Source of the DNA: Candidatus Saccharimonadales bacterium
Lineage (GTDB): Bacteria > Patescibacteriota > Saccharimonadia > Saccharimonadales > EFPC-124
Reading direction: 5' to 3'
Assembly: GCA_035457485.1 (NCBI GenBank)
Contig: DATIBO010000006.1
Span: forward strand, 178,659 to 242,658
DNA length: 64,000 nt
Below, piece after piece: positions 1,165 to 48,295 of the stretch. The notes under the pieces are model-generated. The model was not told the origin of the DNA. It made no database searches and worked only from the letters and a program-made list of their open reading frames with translations. Position numbers and translations under genes: made by a program. Numbering within the stretch: the first letter of the stretch is position 1; every line of letters begins with the position of its first letter.

Positions 1165-2478
1165 ATGAGCCACAGGGTTTTGTCTGATATTTTAGCTAAG
1201 TTTTTAACCCTGTTTTTTGCGTTGATTTTGGTCCTATTACCGTTTCATGCATTTTTATCGACTTGGGGAGGGACGGTAGTAGGCCCGCTTTTAGTTTGGA
1301 AAAGTTGGAAAGAGATCTTGCTCATAATCTTATTAATACCGGTCGCAATTTATTTATTTATGAATCGCGACCTAGCCGATCGATTATGGCGTCGAGCCAT
1401 CAATAAATTTGTAATAATTTACGCGATTATTACCGTTATTTGGGCTCTGTTCTCAAGCGCGTCGATGACGGCGATTGTCGCTGGGCTAGCCTTTAATTTG
1501 CGCTTTTTTGCAATGTTCTTATTGGCGCAAGTTTTACTAGAGAGTAAGAACAGCTGGATAGAAAAAGTTAAGCTCTTTGCTGCGCCGGTACTATTGTGGG
1601 TTACGGTTATAATTTCGTTGTTTGCTATTTTGCAAGTTACGGTTTTGCCGCATGATTTTTTGGTGTCTTTTGGTTACGACAAAGATTCTTCGATTGCACC
1701 CTTCATTTTGGTCGATGATAACCCAGAGGCAGTACGTGCTTTTTCAACTCTTCGTGGGCCAAATACGCTGGCAGCTTTTTTGGTTTTGCCGCTAATTCTA
1801 GCCTTGGCGTTATTTGTTGCTAAAAAACAGCGCTGGTTAGCGGCTATAACTCTAGCGTTAGGCGGAATCGCACTCTTACTAACTGGTGCCCGCAGTGCCT
1901 GGCTGGGGTTTGCGGCCGCCTTAATTTGCTTACTGCTTCTAGAGCTGCCAAAACAAAAATTGCTTAAAGTCATAAAATGGGGAGCTTTGCCGGGTTTCTT
2001 GCTCATTGCTGGATTCATTTGGCTAGCTACAACTGTGCCAGCGCTGCGACTTGCGGTGTTCCACTCTAGTCCAGGCGACCCAACGTTAGTAGAAGGTTCG
2101 ACCGAAGATCATTGGCATGCTACTACAAACGGCATAAAAGACGTGATTGCTAATCCAGTTGGAACTGGCGTGGGCTCGGCTGGCCCGGCGTCGTTCTATA
2201 GCGACAAAGTCAAATTAGCCGAAAATTACTTTGTGCAAATTGCGCAAGAGACAGGGGTGGTTGGAATAGGGCTATTTATAGCCATTTACTTGCTAATGTT
2301 CCGCCGATTGCTAATTGGTCGCGCTCAATTATGGCACAAAGTCCTACTTGCTAGTTTAGTTGGATTAACAGTGGTCAATATCTTTTTGCATGGTTGGGCG
2401 GACGATCCAACGGCCATGGTGTGGTGGGCCTTTGCTGGACTTTTTGCCTGGCCAGTAATAGGTGGTAAAAAATCGTGA
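1165..2478 (+). CDS. O-antigen ligase/polymerase-like (Wzy_C-type) polytopic membrane protein
   Basis: 437 aa, roughly 10-12 TM helices. The RGPNTLAAFL...TGARSAWLG loop is typical of O-antigen-ligase-like proteins. Located between the sugar transferase and GtrA genes. Confidence 0.6.
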   Translation: MSHRVLSDILAKFLTLFFALILVLLPFHAFLSTWGGTVVGPLLVWKSWKEILLIILLIPVAIYLFMNRDLADRLWRRAINKFVIIYAIITVIWALFSSASMTAIVAGLAFNLRFFAMFLLAQVLLESKNSWIEKVKLFAAPVLLWVTVIISLFAILQVTVLPHDFLVSFGYDKDSSIAPFILVDDNPEAVRAFSTLRGPNTLAAFLVLPLILALALFVAKKQRWLAAITLALGGIALLLTGARSAWLGFAAALICLLLLELPKQKLLKVIKWGALPGFLLIAGFIWLATTVPALRLAVFHSSPGDPTLVEGSTEDHWHATTNGIKDVIANPVGTGVGSAGPASFYSDKVKLAENYFVQIAQETGVVGIGLFIAIYLLMFRRLLIGRAQLWHKVLLASLVGLTVVNIFLHGWADDPTAMVWWAFAGLFAWPVIGGKKS

Positions 2479-2924
2479 CTTTGCACCCATACTACCAAGG
2501 TCCGTTTTATACTCGAGTCGATAAAGCCCAGCTAGTTTCCTATCCGCTCTCCGGTTTAATTACCACCCTGTCAGATTACGCAACTTTTTGGCTATTTTTT
2601 ACTGTTTTGGACTCCGGACTACTGATTGCGACAGTTTTGGCATACTGTGTTGGGCTAATCGTAAGTTACGTCCAAAATCGTTACTGGGTTTTTAAAAAAG
2701 GCGCAAGTAAACAAAGTGAAGGTGCAAGTCTGTGGCGTTACGCAACGTTTTTAGTGGTTAATTTAACTATCACTTATGTAATGTTGTGGTTAATGGAAGA
2801 CTTTTGGAGTATAACGCCCTACATCGGAAAAATAGTTGTTAACGTGTTTATGTTTTTTTGGATATACTTAGGTAATACGTACTGGGTATTTAGAGGCGAA
2901 AAAACAGGACCAATTCAAATATGA
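2475..2924 (+). CDS. GtrA-family polysaccharide-synthesis membrane protein
   Basis: 149 aa, 4 TM helices, paired NRYWVF / NTYWVF motifs. The GTG start overlaps the upstream stop (GTGA), indicating translational coupling. Confidence 0.75.
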   Translation: MTLHPYYQGPFYTRVDKAQLVSYPLSGLITTLSDYATFWLFFTVLDSGLLIATVLAYCVGLIVSYVQNRYWVFKKGASKQSEGASLWRYATFLVVNLTITYVMLWLMEDFWSITPYIGKIVVNVFMFFWIYLGNTYWVFRGEKTGPIQI

Positions 2925-3376
2925 ACGAAGCACAAAATCGACCAAGCAAAAAACAACGCGAACTTTTAAGTTATATTGAGGCTTTTATAACTCAGCATGG
3001 CTACGGCCCGAGCTACCGCGAGGTTATGAATGCACTAAACTACAAATCGGTTTCGACAGTAGCTACCCATATAGACAATCTGATAACCAAAGGTCATTTA
3101 CGTAAGCGCGATAAATCAGCCCGGTCGCTAGAGGTCGTCCAAGGCACAAAAGAATTTAAACAAAAAACAGACGTAACCTACGCTCAGGAAAAGTGGTTAA
3201 TAGAACTTGTTAAAAAGAAGTTCTCAGTGGTCGAAAAAGAGCTGAGCCAGGCTTTGATCGATGACTTATACGTTTTAGTCGGGGCCTTACAAGTGATTGG
3301 CTTGGGTGACGCTGCGCGCAGTTTTAAGCCACGATTGGTTGAGCTAGCCCAAAAGGTTAAAGCTAGCTCAGAGTAA
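2921..3376 (+). CDS. LexA-type winged-helix DNA-binding protein lacking the S24 peptidase domain
   Basis: The N-terminus KKQRELLSYIEAFITQHGYGPSYREVMNALNYKSVSTVATHIDNLITKGHLRK...RSLEV matches the LexA DNA-binding domain pattern. The C-terminal 80 aa show no Ser/Lys peptidase motifs. ATGA overlap with gtrA-like. Confidence 0.6.
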   Translation: MNEAQNRPSKKQRELLSYIEAFITQHGYGPSYREVMNALNYKSVSTVATHIDNLITKGHLRKRDKSARSLEVVQGTKEFKQKTDVTYAQEKWLIELVKKKFSVVEKELSQALIDDLYVLVGALQVIGLGDAARSFKPRLVELAQKVKASSE

Positions 3377-3811
3377 GTTAGAAACATGAATTTGGTGTGG
3401 CTCTGCAATAAGCTTAGCAAAGTCTAGCGTGGCCAGCTTTTCAGGTAAAACAAACTCAGTTTTAGGATCAATAAAACTCGCTTGGCTGATTTCGATGTTT
3501 CCATGACTGGTGTTGTCCAGGTCTACTAATTCGTAATCGTCGGCATTTTTAATATAAAAGAAGAATTCTAAAAATTCCTTTTGTTCATCTTTATATTGTT
3601 GGATCATGATTAAGTGGCCAATTTGGGGTGTAATGCCTGTTTCCTCAATCATTTCGCGGTGCAAGCCCTCGGTTATTGATTCGCCAAATTCAAGTCCGCC
3701 TCCAGGGGTGCACCAGTAATCATGTTCGCCATCTGGGCTCTTAAGTTTTTGCGCGTAGATTTTACCGTTTTTAAAAATTATTCCTCGCACGTTAATTCTG
3801 CGTTGTTGCAT
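3368..3811 (-). CDS. NUDIX hydrolase
   Basis: Nudix box GGGLEFGESITEGLHREMIEETGI. Confidence 0.8.
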   Translation of the reverse strand: MQQRRINVRGIIFKNGKIYAQKLKSPDGEHDYWCTPGGGLEFGESITEGLHREMIEETGITPQIGHLIMIQQYKDEQKEFLEFFFYIKNADDYELVDLDNTSHGNIEISQASFIDPKTEFVLPEKLATLDFAKLIAEPHQIHVSNLL

Positions 3812-3939
3812 TTTAAAACTCCTTTAAGGTTAATAAAGGCGTTATTGGTTCGGTTCGTCCGAACATTTGCGCATAGAGGATCCTAGTGGATCTTAGTGAT
3901 ATTGATTTTAACAAAAAAAACAAAAAACAGTCCAAGTCG

Positions 3940-3967
3940 TTGACCTCTGTTTATAAGCTGATATAAT
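3940..3967 (+). promoter_or_regulatory. Sigma70-like promoter of tRNA-Asn
   Basis: TTGACC (3940-3945), 16-nt spacer, TATAAT (3962-3967). It lies 11 nt upstream of the mature tRNA 5' end. Confidence 0.55.
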
Positions 3968-3978
3968 ATTCAAAGTAT

Positions 3979-4053
3979 TCCGGGGTAGCGCAGCGGTAGC
4001 GCAGTTGACTGTTAATCAATTGGTCGCGGGTTCGAATCCCGCCCCCGGAGCCA
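3979..4053 (+). tRNA. tRNA-Asn (anticodon GTT)
   Basis: Manual cloverleaf: tccgggg/ta/gcgc-agcggta-gcgc/a/gttga-CTGTTAA-tcaat/tggtc/gcggg-ttcgaat-cccgc/ccccgga/g/cca. 75 nt with encoded CCA. Confidence 0.9.
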
Positions 4054-4099
4054 AGATAGAGAGCCATGCTGAAAAGCAGGGCTTTTTATCTGTAAATCG
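4048..4099 (+). repeat. Direct repeat copy 1 (last 6 nt of tRNA-Asn plus its terminator hairpin)
   Basis: gagccaagatagagagccatgcTGaaaagcaGggctttttatctgtaaatcg matches 6853-6904 at 49 of 52 positions. Confidence 0.9.
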
Positions 4100-4223
4100 T
4101 TGGTAGACTATGGCCGCTACAACAGCAAGAAGTTTAAGCTCGCGAAGGCTGGTTATGGTGCATTAAAGCAGTTGCCCAAAGCAGAGTCTGAGAAGGCCTG
4201 ACGGGCAAAGGATTACTTAATTT

Positions 4224-5027
4224 ATGCCCAAGCTAAAAAAGTCTGGTAAGTGTCATATCTGCGGCGAGGTTGGAACGCTCTCATACGAGCATGTCCCGCC
4301 CGCTAGTGCTTTCAACAACACAAAGACTCGGGTCTTTAAGGCTACGGAAATACTAGGCAGAAACGACAAGCTGTCGTGGGATATGGATGGCATCAAAGCT
4401 ATCGAGCAGCAGCGCGGTCGTGGCGGCTATACGCTGTGCGAGTCGTGCAACAACTTCACAGGACACGCATACGCCAAAGAGTATGTGCATATGGTACAGC
4501 TCGCTACTGACGGTAAGCATAGTCAATATATACATGATGGTGTCGGCATAGAAATAGCGCTAGACGCTGTTTACTCCCTACGGTTTGCCAAGCAGGTGCT
4601 AGCTATGTTTGCATCTACAAACCACGACAGTTTCTTTGACGCTTATCCAGAACTACGGAAGCTGGTGTTAGATAAAGAGGCTCGTGGAATTGATGAAAAC
4701 AAGTTCGCCCTGTACATGTACTACATGCTCGAAGGTCTCGGTAGAAACACGGGTATTGCGATATGGGGTGACTTTGCATTGGGCACAAGCTTTCGTGCTA
4801 GCGAGATGTCGGCACCACCTTTCGGGTTCGTACTCGAATTTAACCCGCAACGTGACAAGCACGGCATGTGGGGGGCTGAGATAACCTCCATGCTCAATGA
4901 GTTTGGTTATAACGACAAGACAAATATAGGTCTTCGGATGCCCAAGTTTGAGCAGAACACGCCGGTACCGTGCGACTTCAGAACCAAAGAGGAAATTGAA
5001 GGACGGTTTAATGAGGCTACTGCGTAA
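4224..5027 (+). CDS. HNH-like (CxxC...EHxxP...CxxCN) putative nuclease with an unknown C-terminal domain
   Basis: 267 aa. The N-terminus CHICGEVGTLSYEHVPPASAFN...CESCNNFTG resembles the two-CxxC beta-beta-alpha-Me finger of HNH_5-type proteins. The remainder is unassigned. Confidence 0.4.
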   Translation: MPKLKKSGKCHICGEVGTLSYEHVPPASAFNNTKTRVFKATEILGRNDKLSWDMDGIKAIEQQRGRGGYTLCESCNNFTGHAYAKEYVHMVQLATDGKHSQYIHDGVGIEIALDAVYSLRFAKQVLAMFASTNHDSFFDAYPELRKLVLDKEARGIDENKFALYMYYMLEGLGRNTGIAIWGDFALGTSFRASEMSAPPFGFVLEFNPQRDKHGMWGAEITSMLNEFGYNDKTNIGLRMPKFEQNTPVPCDFRTKEEIEGRFNEATA

Positions 5028-36266: not shown

Positions 36267-36676
36267 TGAACTTTCGCCCAAAACTAGCAAAGATAAAACA
36301 ATTATTTACGTTAAACAACGGCGTAGTGGTTTTGGCTATGTTGGTGGCGGCGGGCTGGGTCTGGAATACAATTGAGGCGATTCAGCGGAATTTTGAACTA
36401 CAACAGCAAGTAGATAGTTTAAAACAAGAGATCGCAGTTTTTGAGCTTCAAAATAAAACAATTGATTTTCAAAATAAGTATTATCAGAGCGATGAATATT
36501 TAGAATTGAGTGCGCGCGAGCGCTTAAATAAAGCTGCAAAAGATGAAAAACTTTTAATCTTGCCGCCTAATACGGCTAAACAAACATCGCAAGAACCCGT
36601 TACAACTCAGACACCGATTACCAGCCGGAGTAACTTTGATCAGTGGCTGTATTTTTTGTTTGGCAACAAGAGTTGA
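36266..36676 (+). CDS. FtsB/DivIC-type septum formation initiator
   Basis: One TM helix plus a coiled coil (LQQQVDSLKQEIAVFELQN...DEYLELSARERLN). Confidence 0.6.
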   Translation: MNFRPKLAKIKQLFTLNNGVVVLAMLVAAGWVWNTIEAIQRNFELQQQVDSLKQEIAVFELQNKTIDFQNKYYQSDEYLELSARERLNKAAKDEKLLILPPNTAKQTSQEPVTTQTPITSRSNFDQWLYFLFGNKS

Positions 36677-36720
36677 CATAATTAGTTAAAAACTGGTAAA
36701 ATAACTAAGATATGTTTCGC

Positions 36721-36795
36721 CGCGGGGTGGAGCAGTGGCAGCTCGCGTGGCTCATAACCACGAGGTCGTAGGTTCGAATCCTGCCCCCGCTACCA
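36721..36795 (+). tRNA. Initiator tRNA-fMet (CAT)
   Basis: cgcgggg/tg/gagc-agtggca-gctc/g/cgtgg-CTCATAA-ccacg/aggtc/gtagg-ttcgaat-cctgc/ccccgct/a/cca. Near-identical in its ends to E. coli tRNA-fMet (CGCGGGGUGGAGCAG...CCCCCGCAACCA). Position 1:72 is unpaired (C x U). Confidence 0.85.
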
Positions 36796-36802
36796 AGAAA
36801 AG

Positions 36803-36828
36803 ACGCTCAATTTTTGGGCGTTTTTTTG
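36803..36828 (+). terminator. Intrinsic terminator of tRNA-fMet
   Basis: acgctca-atttt-tgggcgt followed by tttttt. Confidence 0.65.
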
Positions 36829-36849
36829 TTAAAATTTGTTAAAAATGAT

Positions 36850-37335
36850 AAGTTCGTGGGCTGGCCCCGGTGGTTGCGACTGATGTCGCTCGCACCGGGG
36901 CAAACCCTATCTCCAGTTGTACTGCTGGTCCTCGGTGAAGCTGAGGAGGTCCCCGAGGGGTTCCATCAGTATCACGCCGCAGATGCAGCAGATCGAGAGC
37001 AGGTGCAGCGCGATCAGGATGATCGAGATGACACGCTTGGGGCCGACGTTGCCGTAGCCCGTGATCACGCCGATCATGACCCCGGCCAGGTAGCCGAGGC
37101 CACAGGTGAGCAGGCCGACGCACGGGATGACGATGATCACCGAGGCGATCATCCACCACTTGTTGTCCGGCTTGAGGGCCAGGAGCCACGCAGGGGCGTT
37201 GGGGTCGAGCGACGACGGCTTGGGGGCCGGGACGCCGCTGGTAGGGGCAGCAGGGCTGACAGGGGCGGTGGCACCGGCGGTTCCGGGTCCGGGAGTGGTC
37301 ATTGCTGTTCCTCGCATTTCGCGATAGATGGTACA
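36850..37335. other. GC-rich foreign-composition segment
   Basis: Abrupt switch from AT-rich flanks to a G/C-dominated sequence (ggctggccccggtggttgcgac...ggcaccggcggttccgggtccggg), then back. Confidence 0.8.
36907..37302 (-). CDS. Pro/Ala-rich N-terminus + Cys-rich 2-3-TM membrane protein with high-GC (actinobacterial-like) codon usage
   Basis: In this frame nearly every codon ends in G/C (acc act ccc gga ccc gga acc gcc ggt gcc...). GAGGA lies 7 nt upstream of ATG 37302; the track start is 37317. Protein: MTTPGPGTAGATAPVSPAAPTSGVPAPKPSS...WWMIASVIIVIPCVGLLTCGLGYLAGVMIGV... Confidence 0.6.
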   Translation of the reverse strand: MTTPGPGTAGATAPVSPAAPTSGVPAPKPSSLDPNAPAWLLALKPDNKWWMIASVIIVIPCVGLLTCGLGYLAGVMIGVITGYGNVGPKRVISIILIALHLLSICCICGVILMEPLGDLLSFTEDQQYNWR

Positions 37336-37452
37336 ACTTGTAGAAAGGGCTTGCGCTCGGATCTAGGTTTTAAACCTGATCAACGATTGCCCAAATACTA
37401 TATCATTTTATTTAAAAAAAGTCAATATCGCAGCGAATCTTTATATCTGACT

Positions 37453-38259
37453 CTAGCCCTGTTGTCGTTGACGTAGAGTTTCGTAAACAAGTAACCCTGT
37501 TGCCATAGCAACATTCAGCGAATCTGCGAGGCCCTGCATTGGAATGCGCACATTTATATCGCTATTTTTAAGCCAAAAATCAGTTAGTCCGTACTGTTCG
37601 CTGCCCATGGCGATCGCTACTGCGCCGCGCAGATCAGTTTTTGTGTAAATATTATCGGTATCGGGTGTGGTGCAAACAATCTGAATTTTATTTTTGCGTA
37701 ACCAATCGTAAACAGTCTTACTGTCACTAACAACCACAGGTACCGAAAACAAAACGCCAGTCGATGATCTAACGACATTTGGGTTAAAAATGTCAGTCAC
37801 TGCGTCACAAACAATTACGGCATCAACGCCAGCGCCGTCGGCACTTCGTAAAATCGTGCCCAGGTTGCCTGGTTTTTCGATTGATTCAACAACAAGCAAA
37901 AAAGGCTTTTCACTCAGCTTCAAGTCATCGAGACCTGTTTTCCATTGTGGTGCGACGGCCAATAAACCATCGGGGCGATCGCGGTAAGAGCACTTTTCGA
38001 AAACATCTTTGCTCACTTCGTATAGCCGTGCGCCTTTTGCCTGAGCTTGTTTAATTAGCTCGGGCTCGTTTTCGCCCAAAAACCAGTCTGGGCTGTAGTA
38101 GAATTCGGTTGGAATAATTCCTTGTTTGAGTGCGCGACTAACTTCGCGGTAACCCTCAATCAAAAATACGCCTTGCTCGTCGCGGTCACGGCGTTTGCGT
38201 AGGCTGATTAGCCCTTTAACTTTGGGGTTTTGTTTGCTGGTAATTTTTAGGCTATTCAT
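37453..38259 (-). CDS. TrmH/SpoU-family RNA 2'-O-methyltransferase
   Basis: PGNLGTILRSADGAGVDAVIV, AIAMGSEQYGL, IPMQGLADSLNVAMA motifs. Confidence 0.8.
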   Translation of the reverse strand: MNSLKITSKQNPKVKGLISLRKRRDRDEQGVFLIEGYREVSRALKQGIIPTEFYYSPDWFLGENEPELIKQAQAKGARLYEVSKDVFEKCSYRDRPDGLLAVAPQWKTGLDDLKLSEKPFLLVVESIEKPGNLGTILRSADGAGVDAVIVCDAVTDIFNPNVVRSSTGVLFSVPVVVSDSKTVYDWLRKNKIQIVCTTPDTDNIYTKTDLRGAVAIAMGSEQYGLTDFWLKNSDINVRIPMQGLADSLNVAMATGLLVYETLRQRQQG

Positions 38260-38522
38260 GATTCGTCAATGTCGGCAGTGTAGGAGTTTTCAATCGATTT
38301 TTCGCGCTGCGCCAGAATGTGCCAATCTACGTCTTCTTCAGCGCCTTTTAGCATAAAACGCAGACCTTCATCAGGTTCGTGTCCCGCCTCGAGCAATAAA
38401 ATATAAACTTTCTCGGCACCCAGTTTCTCGAACTGTTCGCGTGAACTTACGCCAATCCGATGGAACCAAACTTCGGTTTCTGGGCCAATGTTTCGTAAGC
38501 CAATTGAATCGCCTGATCTCAT
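38256..38522 (-). CDS. TfoX C-terminal-domain-like protein
   Basis: 88 aa. LRNIGPETEVWFHRIGVSSREQFEKLGAEKVY helix-hairpin-helix-like pattern. Confidence 0.45.
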   Translation of the reverse strand: MRSGDSIGLRNIGPETEVWFHRIGVSSREQFEKLGAEKVYILLLEAGHEPDEGLRFMLKGAEEDVDWHILAQREKSIENSYTADIDES

Positions 38523-38584
38523 ACTTATATTGTAAACTTAAGCGCAAAACTTGCAAATATTGTTCTGAGCTAAACTATAACATA

Positions 38585-39970
38585 TTACTTAATTTTTGCA
38601 CACGCAACACGTACAGCTTCGCTCCAGGTTGGAAAGGCGTGGATCGTGCTGGCGACTTCTTCGGCGGTTAAGCCCATCTGAATCGCCAAAGTTAACTCGT
38701 GGATCATCTCGCCTGCGCGTGGACTGACAATGCTAGCCCCTAAAAGTGTGCCGTCTTTGTCGGTTATAACTTTTACAAAACCTTCTTCTACGTTGCTGGT
38801 GTTTGCACGACCAATAATGCTGATCGGGGCGATTGATTTTTTAATCTTTAAATCGCGCTTTATGCATTCGTCTTCGCTCATCCCAACAGATGCAACTTCG
38901 GGCGATAAGAATATACAGCGGGGCACAGCACGGTAGTCGGCGGCGACTTTTTGCTTTTTCCACATGTTATTCGCAGCTAAGCGGCTTTGGTAAATTGCCA
39001 TGTGGGTAAACTGAAACGGTCCAACGACGTCACCTGCTGCGTAAATGTTTTTAGCGGTAGTCTGCATAAATTCGTTAACTGCTATTGCTTTTGGAGTATA
39101 CTCAACCCCAGCGTTTTCTAGGCCTATATCCACGTTGGCGATCTTGCCCGTTGCTAGCAAAACCTCATCGACTTTAACAGTTTTGGTTTCACGGCCCTGC
39201 TGATAAGTCACGCGTTTTGCCAGTCCCTCTTTTGTAACCGATATAACTTTAGTGTTTGTGAGAACGCTGATTCCACGATCTTGTTCAAAATGACTTCTTA
39301 CAAGGTCACCGACTTCTTGGTCTTCTTTCATAAGTAGTCGCGAAGTAATATCTGAGATGTAAATTTTTGTGCCAAAGATGCTAAAAAGTTCGGCAAATTC
39401 GCAGCCAATTGCACCGCCTCCAATTATAAACAACGATTTCGGCGGTCTTGTAAGGTTTACGGCTTCGCGAAAAGTTATAAAACCAGCCTTTTCTAATCCT
39501 TCGATGGGTGGAATAAAATTACTAGTGCCAGTAGCGATCAAGAAATTCTCGGCTGAAATATGTTTGCGATTAACTGTAATCTCGTGGCTAGAAATAAAAC
39601 GCGCCGTACCGTTTATAACGGTTATTCCCTCGGACTCATAGACCTTTTTACCTTGCCATGTCCCAGTACGATACACTGCAAGGTCTTTCCACGCTTTGAT
39701 TGACGGGTAGTTGTAAGTTAGAGTCCCGCCACGAATGCCAAATTGCTGGCCGTTTCGGGCTGCATCGTAGATTTCTGCAGCGTGCAGTAAAGATTTTGTT
39801 GGCACGCAGCCCCAGTTAGGGCATTCACCACCCATCTCGGCGGCCTCTACTACGGCCACTCTTTTGCCTAGATGTTTACTAATGTGTGCTGCAACGCTTC
39901 CGCCACCCCCGCTGCCAATTACAACAAGGTCGTAGTCGTATTTTGGTCGCCTGCTTAGTTTGAGTTTCAT
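38585..39970 (-). CDS. FAD-dependent pyridine nucleotide-disulfide oxidoreductase (Lpd/GR/MerA class)
   Basis: GSGGGG FAD motif, redox-active CPNWGCVPTK, a second GGGAIGCEFA dinucleotide fold, and a C-terminal HAFPT dimerisation motif. Confidence 0.8.
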   Translation of the reverse strand: MKLKLSRRPKYDYDLVVIGSGGGGSVAAHISKHLGKRVAVVEAAEMGGECPNWGCVPTKSLLHAAEIYDAARNGQQFGIRGGTLTYNYPSIKAWKDLAVYRTGTWQGKKVYESEGITVINGTARFISSHEITVNRKHISAENFLIATGTSNFIPPIEGLEKAGFITFREAVNLTRPPKSLFIIGGGAIGCEFAELFSIFGTKIYISDITSRLLMKEDQEVGDLVRSHFEQDRGISVLTNTKVISVTKEGLAKRVTYQQGRETKTVKVDEVLLATGKIANVDIGLENAGVEYTPKAIAVNEFMQTTAKNIYAAGDVVGPFQFTHMAIYQSRLAANNMWKKQKVAADYRAVPRCIFLSPEVASVGMSEDECIKRDLKIKKSIAPISIIGRANTSNVEEGFVKVITDKDGTLLGASIVSPRAGEMIHELTLAIQMGLTAEEVASTIHAFPTWSEAVRVACAKIK

Positions 39971-39979
39971 AACTATCCT

Positions 39980-40261
39980 TTATCCTATTATACGATGATG
40001 CAAGTAAATGTAAGCTGCATCCGGATTATAAAGCTTTAAATATTTTGCGGCCTCGTGGCGAATATCTTTGCTGGTGATTTCGTGCTTGGGGGCTAACCAA
40101 GGTTCAATATCGCGGCAAACACGATCGGCTGTTACTTCTGCTTCACCCGAATGCGAGCTAACCGTCAAACAAGATGAGTATATGCTTGCGTAAAGCTTGC
40201 GCTCGTCGTAGGGTTCGTTAACGCCGGGCAATCGCTTAATTATAGTTGGGGCTGCGCTCAT
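39980..40261 (-). CDS. ATP-cone-domain-like small protein
   Basis: I trimmed the track ORF (39980..40372) to ATG 40261 because its 5' part overlaps the CcdA gene. IIKRLPGVNEPYDERKLYASIYSSC resembles the ATP-cone N-terminus. Confidence 0.4.
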   Translation of the reverse strand: MSAAPTIIKRLPGVNEPYDERKLYASIYSSCLTVSSHSGEAEVTADRVCRDIEPWLAPKHEITSKDIRHEAAKYLKLYNPDAAYIYLHHRIIG

Positions 40262-40263
40262 GG

Positions 40264-40968
40264 TTAACCAAAATTTATTACGCCGTTGGCGATTAGGATC
40301 AAGATCCAGCCTAGTGCAACTAATAGTAGACCGAGCGTTAGGCGCATGCCACCTTTGCCTTCTTCTTTCCATTTTTGCACCGAACTTAGTTTTGCGCCGC
40401 TAGCAACCAAGCCCAAGATTATTAATAGTGGTGCAACAAAAATTAAGTTATATAGAACCATCAGGCCGAATGCAACCCAGTCAAAGTCAATACGCAAAAC
40501 TGTAATTATCGCCAAATAGGGTGCGCCGGTGCAGGGAAGCTCGACCGCTGCTACGAATGCACCAAGCAGCATCACCCCAATCACGGTCGTGCTGCTGCCC
40601 GACCAATCCTGGATTTTTTTGGCAAAAAAGTGTGGAATTTGCAGACTGAATCCTTTGCCATACCAAAAGTAGTCTTTAATTTCCAACATACCAGCCAGAA
40701 TTACCAAGATTCCAACCCCAATCGAGAGGTATTCGGCAATAACAATGGGAATTGCAGTAAAGAAGTAGACCAATCCCAGGCCGGCAACTAGGTATGTAAA
40801 AAAGATTGCAAACGTGTACGCTGCGCCAAGCAGGAGCATGCGTTTAACGGATTTTCCCGAGCCTAAAATCACCGAGATCATTAAAATTAACACGCCGATT
40901 GCGCAAGGGTTTATGGAATCAATTGCTGCGCTGACAACAACAAGCCCGAGTGTAGGTAGGTCTAACAT
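40264..40968 (-). CDS. CcdA/DsbD-type transmembrane thiol-disulfide electron transporter
   Basis: 234 aa, 6 TM helices. DSINPCAIGVL and ELPCTGAPY conserved Cys motifs. Confidence 0.7.
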   Translation of the reverse strand: MLDLPTLGLVVVSAAIDSINPCAIGVLILMISVILGSGKSVKRMLLLGAAYTFAIFFTYLVAGLGLVYFFTAIPIVIAEYLSIGVGILVILAGMLEIKDYFWYGKGFSLQIPHFFAKKIQDWSGSSTTVIGVMLLGAFVAAVELPCTGAPYLAIITVLRIDFDWVAFGLMVLYNLIFVAPLLIILGLVASGAKLSSVQKWKEEGKGGMRLTLGLLLVALGWILILIANGVINFG

Positions 40969-41853
40969 CTAAAATATCTCCCTGATCTCACAAATTTCGC
41001 GTTTACCCACGATACCGAATGTAGCGCATTTGTCTGCGTCGCGGATTCCAAATTGCTCGCAAAGTTTGTCGGTGCGATCCTTTTTAATGTCGAACTCAAA
41101 TATCGCGCAGTCGCCCGGAGGCACTTGACTCTCGCCCGTGATTGCGTAGTCTGCAGGGTGTGCGACTTTGGTTTGCTTATAGGTCTTATCATTTTTATTG
41201 TAGTTGTAAACAAAAACCTGAACTTCGGCTGGTTGGTTGCCGCAAGTTTGACCGTTTACAAAGCTCGCAACTTTGCCATCTGGCGAGGTTTTGATAAATT
41301 TTTCTACTAGCTGAGGCTGATCGGATGGACTACCGTCGCCGTCGGCCTCGGCCTCAAAGTAGCCTGTGTCGTTAATCGGTACGATCAAAGAGTTATTACT
41401 GACTTCACCGCCAACAACTTGCATAAATTTGCCTAACGAGGCGTCGTCGGGTAATTCAACAGGGACGCCCTCTAGATGGATTCGTTTGTCGTTATGTTCA
41501 TGCAAGGTCGGCGTACCAATTTTGTTGCTCAGGAATCCGGTTGGATCGCGTAACTCGAGCTCGTTACCGCAAGCCCAAAATTCGATATCGGCGTGCCAGT
41601 GAACTGGTCCACCTGTTGCTGATTTTACATTTAGGTAAATTGTGGAACCGCTAATAATAGCAGTGGTGCTAATCACAATTACTGCAATGGCAGAAAAAAC
41701 TGGTAAAAATAGTTTCTTTTTTTTGCGTTTAACGACAATTACAGATGCAATAACTAGCAATAATAATAAAATACATGCAATTAAAACGGAGTTAGTCGAG
41801 AGATGACTAACCGCACCTTCGAGGTCGGTAGCGTTTGTAACAGATTCTAGCAT
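40969..41853 (-). CDS. Membrane-anchored extracytoplasmic Cys/His-rich protein, unknown function
   Basis: One TM helix, then GGPVHWHADIEFWACGNE...LHEHNDKRIHLEG and several further Cys. Its stop abuts the ccdA-like start. Confidence 0.45.
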   Translation of the reverse strand: MLESVTNATDLEGAVSHLSTNSVLIACILLLLLVIASVIVVKRKKKKLFLPVFSAIAVIVISTTAIISGSTIYLNVKSATGGPVHWHADIEFWACGNELELRDPTGFLSNKIGTPTLHEHNDKRIHLEGVPVELPDDASLGKFMQVVGGEVSNNSLIVPINDTGYFEAEADGDGSPSDQPQLVEKFIKTSPDGKVASFVNGQTCGNQPAEVQVFVYNYNKNDKTYKQTKVAHPADYAITGESQVPPGDCAIFEFDIKKDRTDKLCEQFGIRDADKCATFGIVGKREICEIREIF

Positions 41854-41907
41854 TTTTATTTTGGTTTTTACTCGCTTACGCTTACTATAGTGTATAGCAT
41901 GGTTTAG

Positions 41908-44631
41908 ATGTCAATGTCAAAAAATACGCAAAAAAATTACTATCAGCTTTCGTCCGAGCAGGCTTTAAAGGACTTTAACGTTGAGCCCAAAAACGGCTTG
42001 CGCGAAACTGACATTAAAAATCGGCAGCAAAAATATGGCAAGAATATTTTACCCGAGGGTAAAAAGTTTTCTGCTATTGGTTTATTTTTTTCGCAGTTCA
42101 AAGATGTATTGATAATTATTTTAATTTTTGCTGCAACGGTTTCGCTAGCTATTAGTTTTTTCGGGGGTCACGGTAGTCCAACGGAAGCACTTTTGATTTA
42201 CTTTATAGTTTTATCTATTGCGATTGTCGGTTTTTTGAACGAGTATAAAGCTGAAAAAACCGTCGAAGCACTTAAAAAGTTAGTGTCGCAGACCTGCAGG
42301 GTCCGGAGAGACGGTGAGATCTTTGAGATTGAGGTTAGTGAACTTGTGCCGGGCGACATTCTTCTTTTAGAAGAGGGGAATAAAATTGCCGCAGATGCTC
42401 GCTTGCTAGAAGTTAATCACCTAAAGACCAACGAAGCCAATTTGACCGGTGAGTCGGTTACGGTAAGTAAACACAGCGAAGTTCTAAATAAAGACCTGCC
42501 GCTTGCTGATCAGCTAAATATGGTGTTTTCTGGTACTTTAATCACAACCGGTACAGCTACTGCAGTGGTGGTTCAAACCGGAGCCAGCACACAAATTGGT
42601 AGAATTGCCAAGCTCGTAAGCGAAATCCAGAGTGACGAAACGCCCATGCAGAAAAAACTCGATGATCTAGGCAGGAAGCTCGGATTTGTAGTGATCGGGA
42701 TCTGCGTTATTGTATTTTTTGTTGTATTGTTTTTTAACAAAGATTTGCAAAATGCCGATTTTTTGCAGCGGGCTTTGTTGGCGTTTACTGCTGCGGTAGC
42801 TTTGGCAGTCGCTGCAATCCCGGAAGGCCTGGCGTTTGTGGTACGAATTAGTCTGGCGCTTGGAGCGCGCAGGATGGCGACTAAAAAAGCATTGGTTCGG
42901 CGGCTTTCGGCGGTTGAATCGCTTGGCTCCACAGATGTGGTTTGCTCCGATAAAACCGGCACACTAACAAAAGGCGAGATGACCGTGCGTCAACTTTTGG
43001 CTGGCGTAGAGCTTTTTGAAATGAGCGGATCTGGTTATGAAGTTAACGGCAACTTGCAAAAAAATAATAAAAAAATTGCGCCAAATTCCGATGTTTTGCG
43101 ACTTTGTGAGATCGGTTTGCTCTGCAATAATTCCAAGATTAGGCAAGGTGATATGATTGGCGATCCAACGGAGGGTTGCTTGTTGATTTCTGCCGCAAAA
43201 GTTGGATTAAACGAGGAAAAAGTTTTGGCAGGCATGCCACGAGTTGGCGAAGTGCCGTTTAGTAGTGATCGCAAAATGATGAGCACTCTACACGAGACTA
43301 AAAAAGGTTATCTTGCCGCCGTTAAGGGCGCACCCGATGTCTTGATTAAGAAATGCACTCATATTTTAAAAAACGGCAAAGTCGTTGCGATTTCGGCTGT
43401 AGACAAAAAGTTAGTAACGGAAACTATTAAAACCATGGCCGCCCAATCGTTGCGGGTTTTAGGGTTCGCTTACCGCGAATTTAGCGAAAAACCAGGTGAG
43501 TATCAGATGGAGCGAAACTTAGTCTTCGCAGGACTCCAGGGCATGATGGACCCACCGCGAGCGGAAGTTAAAGAAGTTATTGAACGCGTCCAACGTGAAG
43601 CCGGTGTGCGTGTGATCATGATCACTGGCGACAATGTTGACACGGCGTGCGCAGTTGCCGCAGAAATTGGAATTACTGGCGACGCAATAACTGGGCTGGA
43701 GTTGGATAAGCTTACTGAAACCGATTTTAAGAACGTCGTAGAAAAAATTGGGATTTATGCTCGCGTTAACCCAGAACATAAGATTAGGATTGTTGAGGCG
43801 CTAAAGCACCACGGTCATCAGGTTGCGATGACGGGTGACGGTGTAAATGACGCCCCTGCAATTAAAGCTGCCGATATTGGAATCGCCATGGGCATTACCG
43901 GCACAGACGCCGCCAAAGAGGCTAGCGACATGATTTTGTTAGACGATCAGTTTTTAACAATTATTAATGCCGTCGAAGAGGGTCGGGGGATTTACGACAA
44001 CGTTCGCAAATTTGTTAACTTTTTACTTTCATGCAACATAGCTGAAGTGGTAACAATTTTGCTGGGCATTTTAGTTCATGGAAATCTTTTGCTAACTGCA
44101 GCACAACTTTTATTTATAAATATCGTAACCGACGGATTACCTGCAGTTGCACTGGGCTCTGATCCGTCGGCTCAAAACGTGATGAAATTCAAGCCGAGCC
44201 GCTATCAGGGTGCAATTGTGACTAGGCGAATATGGGCCGAAATTATAGTTTTTGGAATTTTAATGAGCATAGTAATTTTGTTGCAATACAACTTTGCACT
44301 TCAGGCCGGTGGAGCTCTGCTTGCGACTTCGGCGGTGTTTATGGGGATGGTGGTTTATGAATTCGTGCGCCTTGTGGATATTAGAACTGACTATCCAATA
44401 AAGTGGTTTTCTAACCCATTACTTACAGTGAGTATGTTAGTTTCTTTGGCTATTCAGCTAGCAATTCTGTATATTCCGGCGTTGGCACAAATTTTTACAG
44501 TTCAGCCAATAACTGGTTTTGACTGGTTACTAATCGTTGGTGGCAGTGTAATTTTATTTGTAATTATGAAGTTGCTTAATCCTATTTTTGATTTAATCGG
44601 CCCCGAGAACAAGCCTATAAAACAAGTTTGA
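41908..44631 (+). CDS. P-type cation-transporting ATPase (P2, Ca2+/cation type)
   Basis: 907 aa. [28 protein letters not shown] motifs and 10 TM helices. Confidence 0.9.
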
Positions 44632-44689
44632 CAGAAATCCCCAAACTTAGGTAATGTAGGGCTAAAGAATAAAATAAAAAGGAGCTAAA

Positions 44690-44803
44690 ATGGCTACAGC
44701 AAAAAAACCAGTAAAAAAGAAATCAAGTGCTAAAAACGACGCTGCCGAAATTGCTAAAAAAATGAAAGAAAAAGCCGACAGCGGGGAATGCGCTTTTTGC
44801 TAA
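44690..44803 (+). CDS. Unannotated 37-aa basic peptide ending in CAFC
   Basis: Below the ORF-track length cut-off. AAAAGGAG SD 6 nt upstream of the ATG. MATAKKPVKKKSSAKNDAAEIAKKMKEKADSGECAFC. Confidence 0.4.
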   Translation: MATAKKPVKKKSSAKNDAAEIAKKMKEKADSGECAFC

Positions 44804-44812
44804 CTTATAACC

Positions 44813-45418
44813 CTATTTTTTGTAGGAAATAATCTGAATCCAGGTCGCGTTTTTAGTAGATACGTCAGAAGTAATTTTTATATTTTCAAAACCAACCTCG
44901 TTAAGGTAGCCTTCGATTTGTTCTTGGTTCCAGTAGCAAAAGAATCGTGGGGCGCCTAATTTTTTATTAGTCCACTCTTCGCCCTCTCCTTGTTTTAGGG
45001 TAAAAGCAAAACGTCCGCCGGGTTTTAGCGATTTAAATACTTTTTCTAAAACCAGTTTTACTTCTTCGCGAGTGAAATGCAAAAGCACAGCTTGAGCGAA
45101 TATAAGATCGTAAGGTCCGTCAAGATCATCGGTGATTATGTTTAAGCTTGTAGCGTTAAAACCCTTCGTTTTAAGTAGGTCTACAAATGCTTGAGTTGCA
45201 TCTGTGCATTGAATTTCATAGCCTAGACTCTTTATATAGTTTGCATCGCGTCCGTTAGCGCTTCCAAATTCTATAATTTTTGCATCTTTATTTAAATTAG
45301 ATAAAGATTCGTCTATCCATATTTTTATTTGACCACTGATTTCTTGTGGTGTTCCATCGATATAATCTTGGACATGATCTTCGTATGATTGAATAGTTTT
45401 GGAATTCGAATTTGTCAT
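44813..45418 (-). CDS. Class I SAM-dependent methyltransferase
   Basis: IIEFGSANGRD motif I and the DLIFAQAVLLH region. Confidence 0.75.
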   Translation of the reverse strand: MTNSNSKTIQSYEDHVQDYIDGTPQEISGQIKIWIDESLSNLNKDAKIIEFGSANGRDANYIKSLGYEIQCTDATQAFVDLLKTKGFNATSLNIITDDLDGPYDLIFAQAVLLHFTREEVKLVLEKVFKSLKPGGRFAFTLKQGEGEEWTNKKLGAPRFFCYWNQEQIEGYLNEVGFENIKITSDVSTKNATWIQIISYKK

Positions 45419-45480
45419 GTTGAAGATTGTAGCAGATCAGACTAGTTAGATGATAAAATGCACTTTAGCTAAGGAGCTCG

Positions 45481-46413
45481 ATGACCTACTTAAACGCAAT
45501 TACCCCGATCAACATAAGCGAAGAAAAGCACAAATTTTTTAATAATAGTAATTATCAGCCGCAATTAGAATATAATTGGGACGAAAAATCTATCGAAGGA
45601 TATAAGCGAGTTTCGCCATTATTCTCTGATTTAGTAGATGCGATGGTGGCGCAAGATGTGCCGCAGATACATATTTACAGTCGAGAATACTTTGATGTAG
45701 ATTTTAGACCACAAGACTTAGAATTTGCGGCTAATCTTATAAGGCGCATTCCTGAAGCGTCGAATGGGACGGCCGATGAGCTTGCTAAAATTTTTCAGTC
45801 TAAACTGGATGCTTTAAATATTGACTACAAGGTTGAGGTCGTTGATAAACATGGTTTTCAATGTCGACCTAATCATCCTGCTAAAAAAGTTGAGATTAGC
45901 AAATATTTACATTTGCAGTTTTTGTCAACCGAAGGCGTCGCCAGCCACGAACTTGTTCATGTGATTCGAGCCGTAAACGGTGATCATAATGGAATTGCTA
46001 TACAACATGACTACTTGCCAACAGAGGAAGGCTTATCTTGTTTGATCCAAGATGAATTACTGAAAGAGCCATCGGCATCGTCGTTTCAGCACGCGTTAGA
46101 GTTTTTGGCCGCTGATTTAAGTTCGAAAGCAAGTTTTAAAGAGGTATTTGATTTTTTGGTTTCGATGGGCGCCGACGAAGAAAGCGCTTGGCTGCGCGGT
46201 ATTAGGCAAAAATTCGGCGTAAAAGATACTTCTAAACCCGGCAGTCTAATGAAATCAGGTATGTATTTTTACCACGAAAGACTATTGAGCGAGCTAAGCA
46301 AACAGGAACTTGCTAGGTTGTTTGTGGGCAAAATCCCACAGCATCACTTAAGTAATTATCCTAAGTACAGCGGGGTAGTTCCCGAAGAAAAGATCTTGGA
46401 ACTCCTGGGCTAG
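45481..46413 (+). CDS. DUF1704-like putative metallopeptidase (HExxH; QEGLA-like motif)
   Basis: SHELVHVIRA and PTEEGLSCLIQ. Confidence 0.4.
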   Translation: MTYLNAITPINISEEKHKFFNNSNYQPQLEYNWDEKSIEGYKRVSPLFSDLVDAMVAQDVPQIHIYSREYFDVDFRPQDLEFAANLIRRIPEASNGTADELAKIFQSKLDALNIDYKVEVVDKHGFQCRPNHPAKKVEISKYLHLQFLSTEGVASHELVHVIRAVNGDHNGIAIQHDYLPTEEGLSCLIQDELLKEPSASSFQHALEFLAADLSSKASFKEVFDFLVSMGADEESAWLRGIRQKFGVKDTSKPGSLMKSGMYFYHERLLSELSKQELARLFVGKIPQHHLSNYPKYSGVVPEEKILELLG

Positions 46414-46483
46414 TCAATAACAGATCATCATGTTAAAATAGTGTTTGCCTGATGCGTGGCAGTTTTGCACGATCACGGCACTT

Positions 46484-46560
46484 GGCACCGTAGCTCAGAT
46501 GGTTAGAGCGTAGGACTCATAAGCCTAAGGTCACTGGTTCGATCCCAGTCGGTGCTACCA
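46484..46560 (+). tRNA. tRNA-Met (CAT), elongator-like
   Basis: ggcaccg/ta/gctc-agatggtta-gagc/g/tagga-CTCATAA-gccta/aggtc/actgg-ttcgatc-ccagt/cggtgct/a/cca, 77 nt. The T-arm region resembles E. coli elongator tRNA-Met. Confidence 0.85.
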
Positions 46561-48091
46561 AAATAGGATTTTTAGCGTCTTCGGACGCTATTTTCTTTAT
46601 TAACAGATAAGATTCTGCCAATTTAGCGGTTCTAAATCCCGTCTCACAATCGTATACAAGACCTTCTGGGAAGATTGCATCTTGAATACGCCTTTTGACC
46701 TCTATTGGTGCGAGGTTCCAAAATGATGCTGGATTGCTCATGAACAACAGAGCATTGTCTATTACTTGCTCCTTATCCTTGATATCGTCAGTAATCTCAG
46801 AGCGGCGTAATTCTATTTTGGTAATGTCGTTATCAACTTCTGCTAGTTTACGGTCTTTATCTGCTTCACTAATTTTGTTATCTATATACAAATCTAGTGT
46901 ACGAATACGTTTGTCCTGTAGGGCGTTTAGCTCACTGTCTAATGTACGCGAAAGGTTGTGTGCGTCTCGTGTTTCGTTATTCCATTCACGTAGCACGATA
47001 TGTTTAAACAGCTTCTGCGCGTCTTCTGTTGGTCGTACACGCTCCATTAAGTCCATGAAGTCCTGATGCACTAAGCCACGCATCTTGCTCACAGGCGCAC
47101 CAATTTCTTTAGCCCTACAAAACATGCAAGAATAGCGAGGACTCGGGCCACTGCGACCACGAGGAGAACTTCCAGTCATAGGTTTACCGCAGGTATGCTG
47201 CAGGAATCCGCTACGTAATGGCCATTCCTCTTCAGCAGAGCGGCTAAAGTTACGCAAGCTACCATTCAAGATTGCCTGATTACGGTAGTAAGTGGTCTCA
47301 CTAATGATGGGCTGGTGTATACCCTGAATTAGCCTGCCGCCTATATAGTCGGAAGTTACGAATCCAGCATAAAGTGGGTTACCTAACATGTCCTTTACCA
47401 TCTGCCATGTTCGCATGCCATTCTTTCGACTACGAATACCAATCTTGTACGCGAAATCACGAGCATTCTGTACCGTATAAGCACCCGTAGAAAACTCTTC
47501 TAGCAGCTGCTTCATCTTTGGGGCATCGTCATTAGGTTCGATAGTCACAATACCTGTTGCTGTCCTAATACGCCTGTAGCCAACGGGTGCAGCATGAGGC
47601 CAAGCCCCTTGCTCGAGACGAGCTATCATACCGCCCGTCGTACGAGCTAATCGAATCTCATTATCAAACTCCGCAAATGCTGCAAGCATACTTTCCATCA
47701 AGTTGCCCATAGGGTCATCACTGATAGGCTCGGTTACCGATACTACTTTGATTCCTAGCTTTTTCAGTTGTGCTTTGATGATATGGTGATATTCACTCTT
47801 ACGAGCTAACCTGTCCACCTTCCAGATAATGCAGTGAGATATTTTGCCTTTGTTTTTAGCACAGTAATCAAGCATCGCTGCTAGTTTTGGACGGTCTATG
47901 AGTTTCGCAGATACACCTTCTTCACGAAATACATTCTCATTAGGCAATTCAATGCCATTTGATTTAGCGTAACGCATACAGGCATCGGTTTGACTATCCA
48001 AACTGGTACCTTTTACTTGGTCATCACTCGATACTCGTACGTATGCAACTGCCTTCATAATTTCTTCGGTATTTTTAGAACTTTTACTCAT
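46517..48091 (-). CDS. Large serine recombinase (integrase)
   Basis: Resolvase catalytic N-terminus AVAYVRVSSDDQ, a recombinase domain, a Cys-containing zinc-ribbon-like segment (HTCGKPM...YSCMFCRAKE), and a coiled coil (LDSELNALQDKRIRTLDLYIDNKISEADKDRKLAEVDNDITKIE). The last 44 nt overlap tRNA-Met. Confidence 0.9.
   Translation of the reverse strand: MSKSSKNTEEIMKAVAYVRVSSDDQVKGTSLDSQTDACMRYAKSNGIELPNENVFREEGVSAKLIDRPKLAAMLDYCAKNKGKISHCIIWKVDRLARKSEYHHIIKAQLKKLGIKVVSVTEPISDDPMGNLMESMLAAFAEFDNEIRLARTTGGMIARLEQGAWPHAAPVGYRRIRTATGIVTIEPNDDAPKMKQLLEEFSTGAYTVQNARDFAYKIGIRSRKNGMRTWQMVKDMLGNPLYAGFVTSDYIGGRLIQGIHQPIISETTYYRNQAILNGSLRNFSRSAEEEWPLRSGFLQHTCGKPMTGSSPRGRSGPSPRYSCMFCRAKEIGAPVSKMRGLVHQDFMDLMERVRPTEDAQKLFKHIVLREWNNETRDAHNLSRTLDSELNALQDKRIRTLDLYIDNKISEADKDRKLAEVDNDITKIELRRSEITDDIKDKEQVIDNALLFMSNPASFWNLAPIEVKRRIQDAIFPEGLVYDCETGFRTAKLAESYLLIKKIASEDAKNPILVAPTGIEPVTLGL
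46573..46598 (+). terminator. tRNA-Met intrinsic terminator (UUCG-loop hairpin)
   Basis: tagcgtc-ttcg-gacgcta followed by tttt. It lies inside the recombinase ORF on the opposite strand. Confidence 0.65.
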
Positions 48092-48295
48092 CTAATTATA
48101 CCTCGTTTGCGTAACTTTTAGAACCTCAAATTGTGACACATTCCTGAGGAAAGCTCTTGCAATGGCCGTAAAATCTAGAACCGCCACTGCCAGCGATTCG
48201 CCGGAGCTATACTGCGATGTTTTACCGATTACTTTCTTGGCTTCATCTACTGATATAGGCGTAAGTTCGCTTACGGAATCAAGACTAAACTCCAT
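48092..48295 (-). CDS. Small hypothetical protein immediately upstream of the recombinase (candidate accessory/directionality factor)
   Basis: I prefer ATG 48295 (MEFSLDSVSE..., 67 aa), preceded by AAGGAG with a 7-nt spacer, over the track start at 48343. Its stop abuts the recombinase start. Confidence 0.4.
   Translation of the reverse strand: MEFSLDSVSELTPISVDEAKKVIGKTSQYSSGESLAVAVLDFTAIARAFLRNVSQFEVLKVTQTRYN

Follow-up and report, generated by a model that had tools for sequence, protein, structure and literature searches.

Genomic islets and flexible islands next to tRNA genes are characterised by atypical composition and codon usage, a location at the side of a tRNA, variable content and cargo of the accessory type. 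All of these traits are found in the locus described here, a GC-rich patch of about 0.5 kb in a 64,000-nucleotide stretch of a Candidatus Saccharimonadales bacterium (GenBank assembly GCA_035457485.1, contig DATIBO010000006.1, positions 178,659 to 242,658), which was analysed as a whole and is called the window below. The patch lies between an initiator tRNA gene (tRNA-fMet) and a gene for a SpoU/TrmH-family RNA methyltransferase (SpoU), an interval that we call the slot, and it carries one gene, ORF A, on the minus strand. Among known elements, islets that were acquired horizontally at hot spots beside tRNA genes come closest. Compared with tRNA-adjacent islands, however, the insert is a single gene of ~530 bp, and neither an integrase nor a duplicated tRNA 3' end or direct repeats accompany it. 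Further, it is placed downstream of the tRNA terminator, not inside the tRNA, and behind a conserved resident promoter. An integrase-mediated, tRNA-linked island was thus rejected: ORF A is all that the slot holds, no integrase is found at its edge and there are no repeats of the tRNA 3' end.

Integron cassettes provide a second comparison. They too are promoterless units, made up of a ribosome binding site (RBS), an open reading frame (ORF) and, right behind its stop codon, a long imperfect palindrome; the units stand behind a conserved promoter and differ between relatives at one and the same position, but the resemblance is one of layout only. The slot holds a single unit and not an array, and no attC core sites (RYYYAAC...GTTRRRY) are present in the stems of the hairpin behind ORF A (36858-36907) or of its counterpart in the nearest relative, L052 (1629-1695). 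In addition, no tyrosine recombinase or integron integrase was found among the ORFs of ~31-45 kb that were scanned against Pfam. Given hairpins without attC core sites, an integron cassette was rejected.

The reading that we favour, with a probability of about 60%, is that the patch is a recently acquired foreign gene from a high-GC donor, located in a strain-variable slot behind a resident promoter, and that it encodes a small membrane protein acting as an accessory factor of the envelope. General signs of horizontal acquisition are seen in the composition (65% versus 43% GC; GC at third codon positions, GC3, 0.89 versus ~0.43) and in a patchy distribution among the close relatives; a closest homologue from some other lineage was not found in the searched protein, metagenome, viral, phage and plasmid collections. 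The kind of event, a horizontally acquired islet, is ordinary and the gene is a new orphan. That such a gene recurs in two genomes is a lead, not a result.

The GC content is 64.8% across 36850-37335, and the richest 450-bp segment (start 36851) reaches 66.4%. For all 450-bp segments of the 64 kb the mean is 43.1% with a standard deviation (SD) of 3.6%, which places the patch ~6 SD higher. The runner-up among non-overlapping segments has only 51% GC, making the patch the sole such outlier in 64 kb; at 150-bp resolution, 36841-37385 is the only run of at least 58% GC in the window that exceeds 250 bp. On the left the patch begins just 3' of the tRNA-fMet and its terminator, and on the right it ends at the start codon and RBS of ORF A, ~150 bp short of the SpoU gene. 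An earlier note on this DNA had described an abrupt switch from AT-rich to GC-rich sequence after the tRNA-fMet terminator and back before a trmH-like gene, with neither a recombinase nor a flanking repeat, and both statements agree with what we find. No recombinase is encoded in or adjoining the patch, the nearest being a large serine recombinase at 46517..48091, 9 kb off; the genes between the two have the same order in the relative L047. The repeat scan found no significant direct repeats in or next to the patch. The features of the slot and its two anchors are:

36721..36795, plus strand: tRNA-Met(CAT), initiator-like (ARAGORN; Rfam tRNA, 60.8 bits; C1:U72 mismatch), the left anchor of the slot
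36803..36828, plus strand: intrinsic terminator of the tRNA, a ACGCTCAA/TTGGGCGT stem followed by a T-run, read from the sequence; native AT-rich DNA
36858..36907, minus strand: GC-rich hairpin starting at the stop codon of ORF A (RNA fold; also found as inverted repeat I1)
36907..37302, minus strand: ORF A, 131 aa (NCBI VLA77_01245), GC3 0.89; its translation is identical to P0001, the NCBI-annotated frame
37303..37387, minus strand: 5' untranslated region (leader) of ORF A, ~85 nt, intermediate GC, predicted to be structured
37308..37313, minus strand: RBS GAGGAA, read from the sequence, 5 nt before the ATG at 37302
37397..37425, minus strand: sigma-70-type promoter TTGACT-17-TATAGT with extended -10 TG (promoter scan, 10/12 consensus positions), in AT-rich DNA; resident
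37453..38259, minus strand: SpoU/TrmH-family RNA methyltransferase gene (Pfam PF00588 at 1.3e-33, and PF22435), native composition, the right anchor of the slot

A mismatch at 1:72 of the acceptor stem is typical of initiator tRNAs. The tRNA terminator was missed by the consensus terminator scan; L052 has a comparable stem and T-run at the matching position.

Four long ORFs overlap within the patch, and only one of them, 36907..37302 on the minus strand, joins an open frame with high GC3 (GC1/2/3 = 0.58/0.51/0.89), against a GC3 of 0.39-0.44 in native genes. The only other frame with GC-rich third positions is the in-phase antisense frame, and it has 2 stops. The hairpin that starts at the stop codon is very stable (-37.6 kcal/mol, z = -7.3; 0 of 200 shuffles equally stable), has no U-tract directly after it and is presumed to be the transcript end of the imported gene. 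The leader also folds better than its shuffles (-28.7 kcal/mol, z = -3.8), with a predicted stem GAUCAGGUUU/AAACCUAGAUC (37303-37392, minus strand); it fits none of the Rfam families, and nothing comparable is found in L052. Across 36600-37600, Rfam returned the tRNA only, at E values up to 1. A structured non-coding RNA was rejected on the ground that nothing beyond the tRNA matches Rfam and that the patch has a clear 3-base codon periodicity.

The product of ORF A begins MTTPGPGTAGATAPVSPAAPTSGVPAPKPSSLDPNAPAW... and has, by hydropathy, a Pro/Ala-rich N-terminus followed by two hydrophobic stretches, with 6 Cys. The single-sequence AlphaFold2 model has a mean pLDDT of 66 (72-83 in the helices), with residues 1-46 disordered and two long helices, 47-82 and 88-130, that cover the hydrophobic stretches. 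The product is predicted to be a small protein integral to the membrane, in which the two long, Cys-rich helices form a hairpin and the tail rich in Pro and Ala is disordered. The earlier note had picked out the same frame among the four by its GC3 and a GAGGA RBS and had described a Pro/Ala-rich N-terminus followed by Cys-rich transmembrane helices; in these respects it was right.

The Logan gene caller predicted a 197-aa ORF in the wrong frame on the opposite strand (36814-37476, plus strand, in the window; 10784-11377 in L044), not the 131-aa ORF A, and for this reason ORF A is absent from the Logan protein source. In general, high-GC inserts in AT-rich genomes are open to wrong-frame annotation by gene callers.

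ORF A is an orphan in all the collections that were searched. In a word-indexed search of 5.8 billion clustered proteins it matches only itself, and a full HMMER search of 1.84 billion representatives returned itself and one 623-aa tandem-repeat protein. The latter was rejected as a relative, as it matches one helix by low complexity and is spurious. No match was found in Pfam, PHROGs, NCBIfam and PADLOC at lenient thresholds, in phage and plasmid collections at the level of DNA or protein, or in viral and metagenome contigs.

Next, we compared the slot between relatives. Many Saccharimonadales relatives are available for the FtsB/DivIC-like gene upstream of the tRNA and likewise for SpoU, and at five loci (the window, L047, L052, L053 and L057) the slot is readable. 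As far as the contigs reach, all five share the order trehalase - FtsB - tRNA-fMet - slot - SpoU - TfoX_C - Pyr_redox. The contents of the slot, with the protein identity of SpoU to that of the window, are:

Window (SpoU reference): ORF A; slot of 657 bp
L052 (SpoU 90%): GC-rich 111-aa ORF; slot of ~605 bp
L057 (SpoU 78%): Zeta_toxin/AAA_33-type kinase gene; slot of ~630 bp
L053 (SpoU 79%): 228-aa ORF on the other strand; slot of ~1.1 kb
L047 (SpoU 74%): 123-aa ORF and a DUF5661 gene; slot of 757 bp

ORF A is missing from the slot of the four relatives, where other genes are found instead. As the content differs in all five loci, genes are evidently turned over at a high rate in the slot, which makes it a hot spot. 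The slot genes of L047, L053 and L057, the three relatives at a greater distance, encode soluble proteins and have native composition. Closer relatives are present in JGI samples (FtsB 80% and 73%, SpoU 88%); a second metagenome scan, with FtsB as query, returned one distant locus only.

The slot of L052, which comes from a different sequencing run (SRR33619856) than the Logan contigs that match the window (SRR25158331), also contains a GC-rich patch, ~65% GC versus 44%. Its 111-aa ORF has GC1/2/3 = 0.53/0.46/0.87 and GGGAG upstream, and it is followed by a hairpin of its own (1629-1695, -38.5 kcal/mol, z = -7.0), distinct from that of ORF A. The product (MNTGKVGSALANPKAPFRIMLGLLVMNISCSCCAYFCGPLGPF...NEW) is again predicted to be a membrane protein of small size, and its hydrophobic segments contain Cys. 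The searches made for ORF A gave no match for this ORF either, and its protein cluster has a single member. Neither the variable slot with its conserved promoter nor this second GC-rich gene had been seen in the earlier note.

The promoter is kept between the window and L052 through TATAGTAT.TGGGCA, as are a short block at the tRNA terminator and the tRNA itself, identical in the part that overlaps. Between the promoter and the block at the tRNA side, neither leader, ORF nor hairpin can be aligned; for the leaders the global alignment has z = 1.8 and the local alignment z = -0.1. Since the leader of ORF A cannot be aligned with that of L052, it belongs to the replaced segment. Further, the gene that the nearest relative has in the slot is another one but of the same general kind, so that such genes would have been captured here on more than one occasion. 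With two related genomes carrying different high-GC orphan genes for membrane proteins at the same promoter-equipped site, the locus merits a survey across the clade.

An imperfect inverted repeat, TTT.TTA..AAAATGATA.AGT...TGGGC, flanks the insert of the window (36835-36861, plus strand, versus 37389-37419, reverse complement) and overlaps the -10 box of the promoter. Its score (z = 3.5) is reached by 10 of 1000 shuffles and L052 has no such repeat; it is probably due to chance. Terminal inverted repeats and an invertible element were rejected given this marginal similarity and its lack in L052.

With regard to the product, a group of known small proteins resembles ORF A, namely CD225/dispanin-like proteins, class II holins and type I toxins: all are small, have two hydrophobic helices with Cys in the parts that lie in the membrane, and share a basic loop that is short. 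However, up to an E value of 10 neither ORF A nor the L052 ORF matches CD225 or any other family in Pfam, and no lysis gene is near ORF A. Type I toxins are shorter than about 60 aa and have an overlapping antisense RNA; ORF A has 131 aa and no antisense promoter at it passed the promoter scan. A type I toxin-antitoxin system was rejected on these two points and because the inverted similarity flanking the insert is marginal and not found in L052.

To estimate when the two GC-rich genes arrived, we used the divergence of their neighbours. SpoU of the window and of L052 are 90% identical as proteins, and their third positions are only 47% identical. At the 4-fold degenerate sites of SpoU and TfoX_C (n = 125) the divergence is 1.49 substitutions per site (bootstrap 5-95%, 1.07-2.59). 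In a model of amelioration, a gene with a starting GC3 of 0.9-1.0 in the common ancestor drifts neutrally under the resident mutation pattern, and its expected present GC3 is ~0.64-0.73, compared with an observed value of 0.87-0.89. Flanking synonymous sites are thus saturated while GC3 is still this high, indicating that both genes entered well after the split of the lineages, unless GC3 was held up. From the model we infer that they arrived at most 0.05-0.21 substitutions per site ago. The promoter, judging from its alignment, appears to have been kept since before the split of the window and L052.

Under the favoured reading, the acquired segment would be ~530 bp long (roughly 36858-37387) and would comprise the 5' leader, the RBS, the 131-codon ORF and its own strong hairpin. 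It is seated between the tRNA-fMet terminator and the SpoU gene, directly downstream of the resident sigma-70-type promoter, and the donor would be a high-GC organism with a GC3 of ~0.9. The most likely route would be DNA uptake by natural transformation followed by recombination into the slot. Natural transformation that depends on comEC has been shown in Saccharibacteria (PMC10633639), and it is because Saccharibacteria are naturally competent that we favour entry by DNA uptake. The segment may then have become fixed at a site that tolerates insertions and provides immediate expression. Transcription would start from the promoter at 37397-37425 and be terminated, or the transcript stabilised, at the hairpin, and the product, a hairpin of helices with a flexible tail, would be inserted into the membrane. 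As to function, architecture and context would fit a strain-specific accessory factor of the envelope, which might act where the cell meets its host, or else serve immunity or exclusion, but this is a guess. An envelope role is favoured because accessory genes occupy the slot of all relatives, because both GC-rich units encode membrane proteins and because strain-specific surface factors matter at the contact between epibiont and host.

Several points weigh against this reading. No donor or homologue of ORF A is found in any collection searched, so its foreign origin rests on composition alone, and its expression is predicted from sequence signals only. The recurrence of a GC-rich gene in the slot is known from two genomes. 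Further, the two genes are of the same kind and orientation and have nearly coincident boundaries, which is odd for independent illegitimate insertions and hints at some further mechanism. Finally, the Logan assembly that reproduces the patch may share reads with the metagenome-assembled genome (MAG) from which the window is taken; it rules out an assembler error but not an artefact of the reads, which is formally possible as the source of the patch.

The question of the donor was addressed by codon usage, using references built from long high-GC3 ORFs. The log-likelihood (lnL) of ORF A is -185 under native usage and -102 to -116 under seven high-GC references, a gap of ~70-80 lnL units over 130 codons. 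Among these, Clavibacter (-102.4) and Methylorubrum (-102.6) are followed by Rhodococcus (-107.4), Streptomyces (-109.2) and Opitutaceae (-110.0). For both ORFs together (240 codons) the lnL is -335 under native usage and -188 to -214 under the high-GC references:

Methylorubrum: -187.7
Clavibacter: -188.2
Rhodococcus: -191.8
Streptomyces: -196.9
Opitutaceae: -201.1
Ralstonia: -208.9
Deinococcus: -213.7

Codon usage singles out no donor phylum, and an actinobacterial style is compatible with it but not diagnostic.

The earlier note had proposed that ORF A would be host-derived if the genome is that of an epibiont of Actinomycetota. Of this proposal, a foreign high-GC gene is supported by the poor fit to native codon usage, but for an Actinomycetota source we consider the chances rather low. 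Clavibacter and Rhodococcus are indeed among the best-fitting references for ORF A, and a Pro/Ala-rich tail followed by transmembrane helices, as in its product, is a common style among actinobacterial membrane proteins. In addition, cultivated Saccharibacteria grow on Actinobacteria (PMC10633639). However, the alphaproteobacterium Methylorubrum fits equally well and Opitutaceae only slightly worse, and no homologue, actinobacterial or other, is found in the 5.8 billion clustered proteins, the 1.84 billion representatives, the plasmids or the phages. The hosts of environmental Saccharibacteria are, moreover, mostly unknown (PMC8406219). Finally, the past exchange suggested by SpoU, next to the slot, was with Opitutaceae and not with Actinomycetota.

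SpoU of the Saccharimonadales clade (window, L001-L038, L047, L052, L053 and L057) shows ~70% protein identity to that of Opitutaceae (Verrucomicrobiota, 60-69% GC). Both form sister clades when a tree is built by neighbour joining, with outgroups at ~43% identity, and the tree points to an old exchange between the phyla, which may have gone in either direction. The Opitutaceae loci share SpoU alone with the window and not its neighbours. Opitutaceae were rejected as the donor of ORF A, as nothing related to it is encoded in their SpoU loci.

A broader possibility, which we hold only tentatively, is that this soil clade of Saccharimonadales has a dedicated expression slot between SpoU and tRNA-fMet, in which a strong conserved promoter precedes an exchangeable unit with a hairpin at its end, and that this slot repeatedly takes up high-GC genes for small membrane proteins, possibly from hosts, for use at the cell surface. 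If so, the inserts would be a record of genes passed from host to epibiont, and through their sequence the hosts of environmental Saccharibacteria could be approached. Evidence for gene transfer in this direction is scarce (PMC8406219), and a donor within the same community is best traced with a fresh import that has not been ameliorated.

A different explanation is that both GC-rich ORFs belong to a single resident family that diverges fast at an orthologous locus, its GC being kept high by selection or by repeated swapping of alleles among strains and not by separate imports from another phylum. The slot, the promoter, the orientation and the small size are common to both genes, and both have hydrophobic helices that contain Cys, a basic loop, a C-terminal tail that is acidic and aromatic, and a strong hairpin. 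There is also a weak common motif, I-x-C...C-G-(P)-L-G, in the best local protein match (BLASTP E = 0.01 in a single comparison), and the DNA of the two ORFs shows marginal similarity (z = 2.4 against a codon-shuffle null). This match is, however, not collinear, and a collinear alignment of the protein cores is no better than shuffles (z = 0.8), so that homology of the two is not demonstrable. The 5' leaders are unrelated, and the slots of more distant relatives hold unrelated soluble proteins of native composition. Further, a GC3 of 0.87-0.89 cannot last neutrally over 1.5 substitutions per site, and we know of no mechanism that would hold it at this level in such a gene. Taken together, we find a resident family improbable.

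We see equally little reason to believe that the patch is functionless DNA, which a competent cell would have imported and so far retained, with an ORF that is not used. This would agree with an orphan without family and with the very recent arrival indicated by amelioration, and chance open frames, such as the four overlapping ones, are expected in DNA of 66% GC. What lies in the slot is nevertheless not a random piece of a gene but a whole ORF in the GC3-rich frame, with start, RBS, stop and terminal hairpin. It is oriented behind a promoter kept at saturation-level divergence, and the same arrangement is seen again in L052.

An assembly or binning chimera, the alternative raised in the earlier note, might be suspected from the abrupt switches in composition beside a tRNA gene and from the break of the De Bruijn contigs inside the tRNA-fMet in every run examined, but it has next to no probability left: the patch and both its junctions lie inside one unbranched Logan contig (SRR25158331_758, 62,877 bp), identical to 36737-48259 with 0 mismatches and spanning tRNA, patch and 11 kb of native sequence, by which an assembler or binning chimera is excluded, the break sits in the tRNA and not at the patch, the patch edges match gene signals, a relative from a different run has the same layout, and the MAG contig is 889 kb long, so that binning is not at issue.

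A second contig of SRR25158331, also identical to the window, stops at 36766, leaving a 30-nt overlap (36737-36766) with the first inside the tRNA. The ends of Logan contigs from several independent runs (L043, L044, L045, L052, L053 and L057) are located inside the tRNA-fMet as well. The tRNA-fMet is a branch point of the assembly graph common to other genomes, and the overlap is what a graph with k = 31 gives. As the contigs end here, linkage across the tRNA depends on the MAG assembler.

The ORF of the large serine recombinase at 46517-48091 (minus strand) has Resolvase and Recombinase domains and shares 44 nt with the 3' part of a further tRNA-Met(CAT) (46484-46560, plus strand); no further copy of the overlapped tRNA-Met end was found in the window. 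In L045 a serine recombinase (2709-4328) overlaps a different tRNA-Met, upstream of the trehalase gene. Finally, L053 contains four extra genes between Pyr_redox and SpoU (2369-4937), namely one for a GNAT acetyltransferase, one that is methyltransferase-like and two ORFs of 177 aa and 165 aa. These indicate that the whole neighbourhood is plastic, beyond the slot at the tRNA side.

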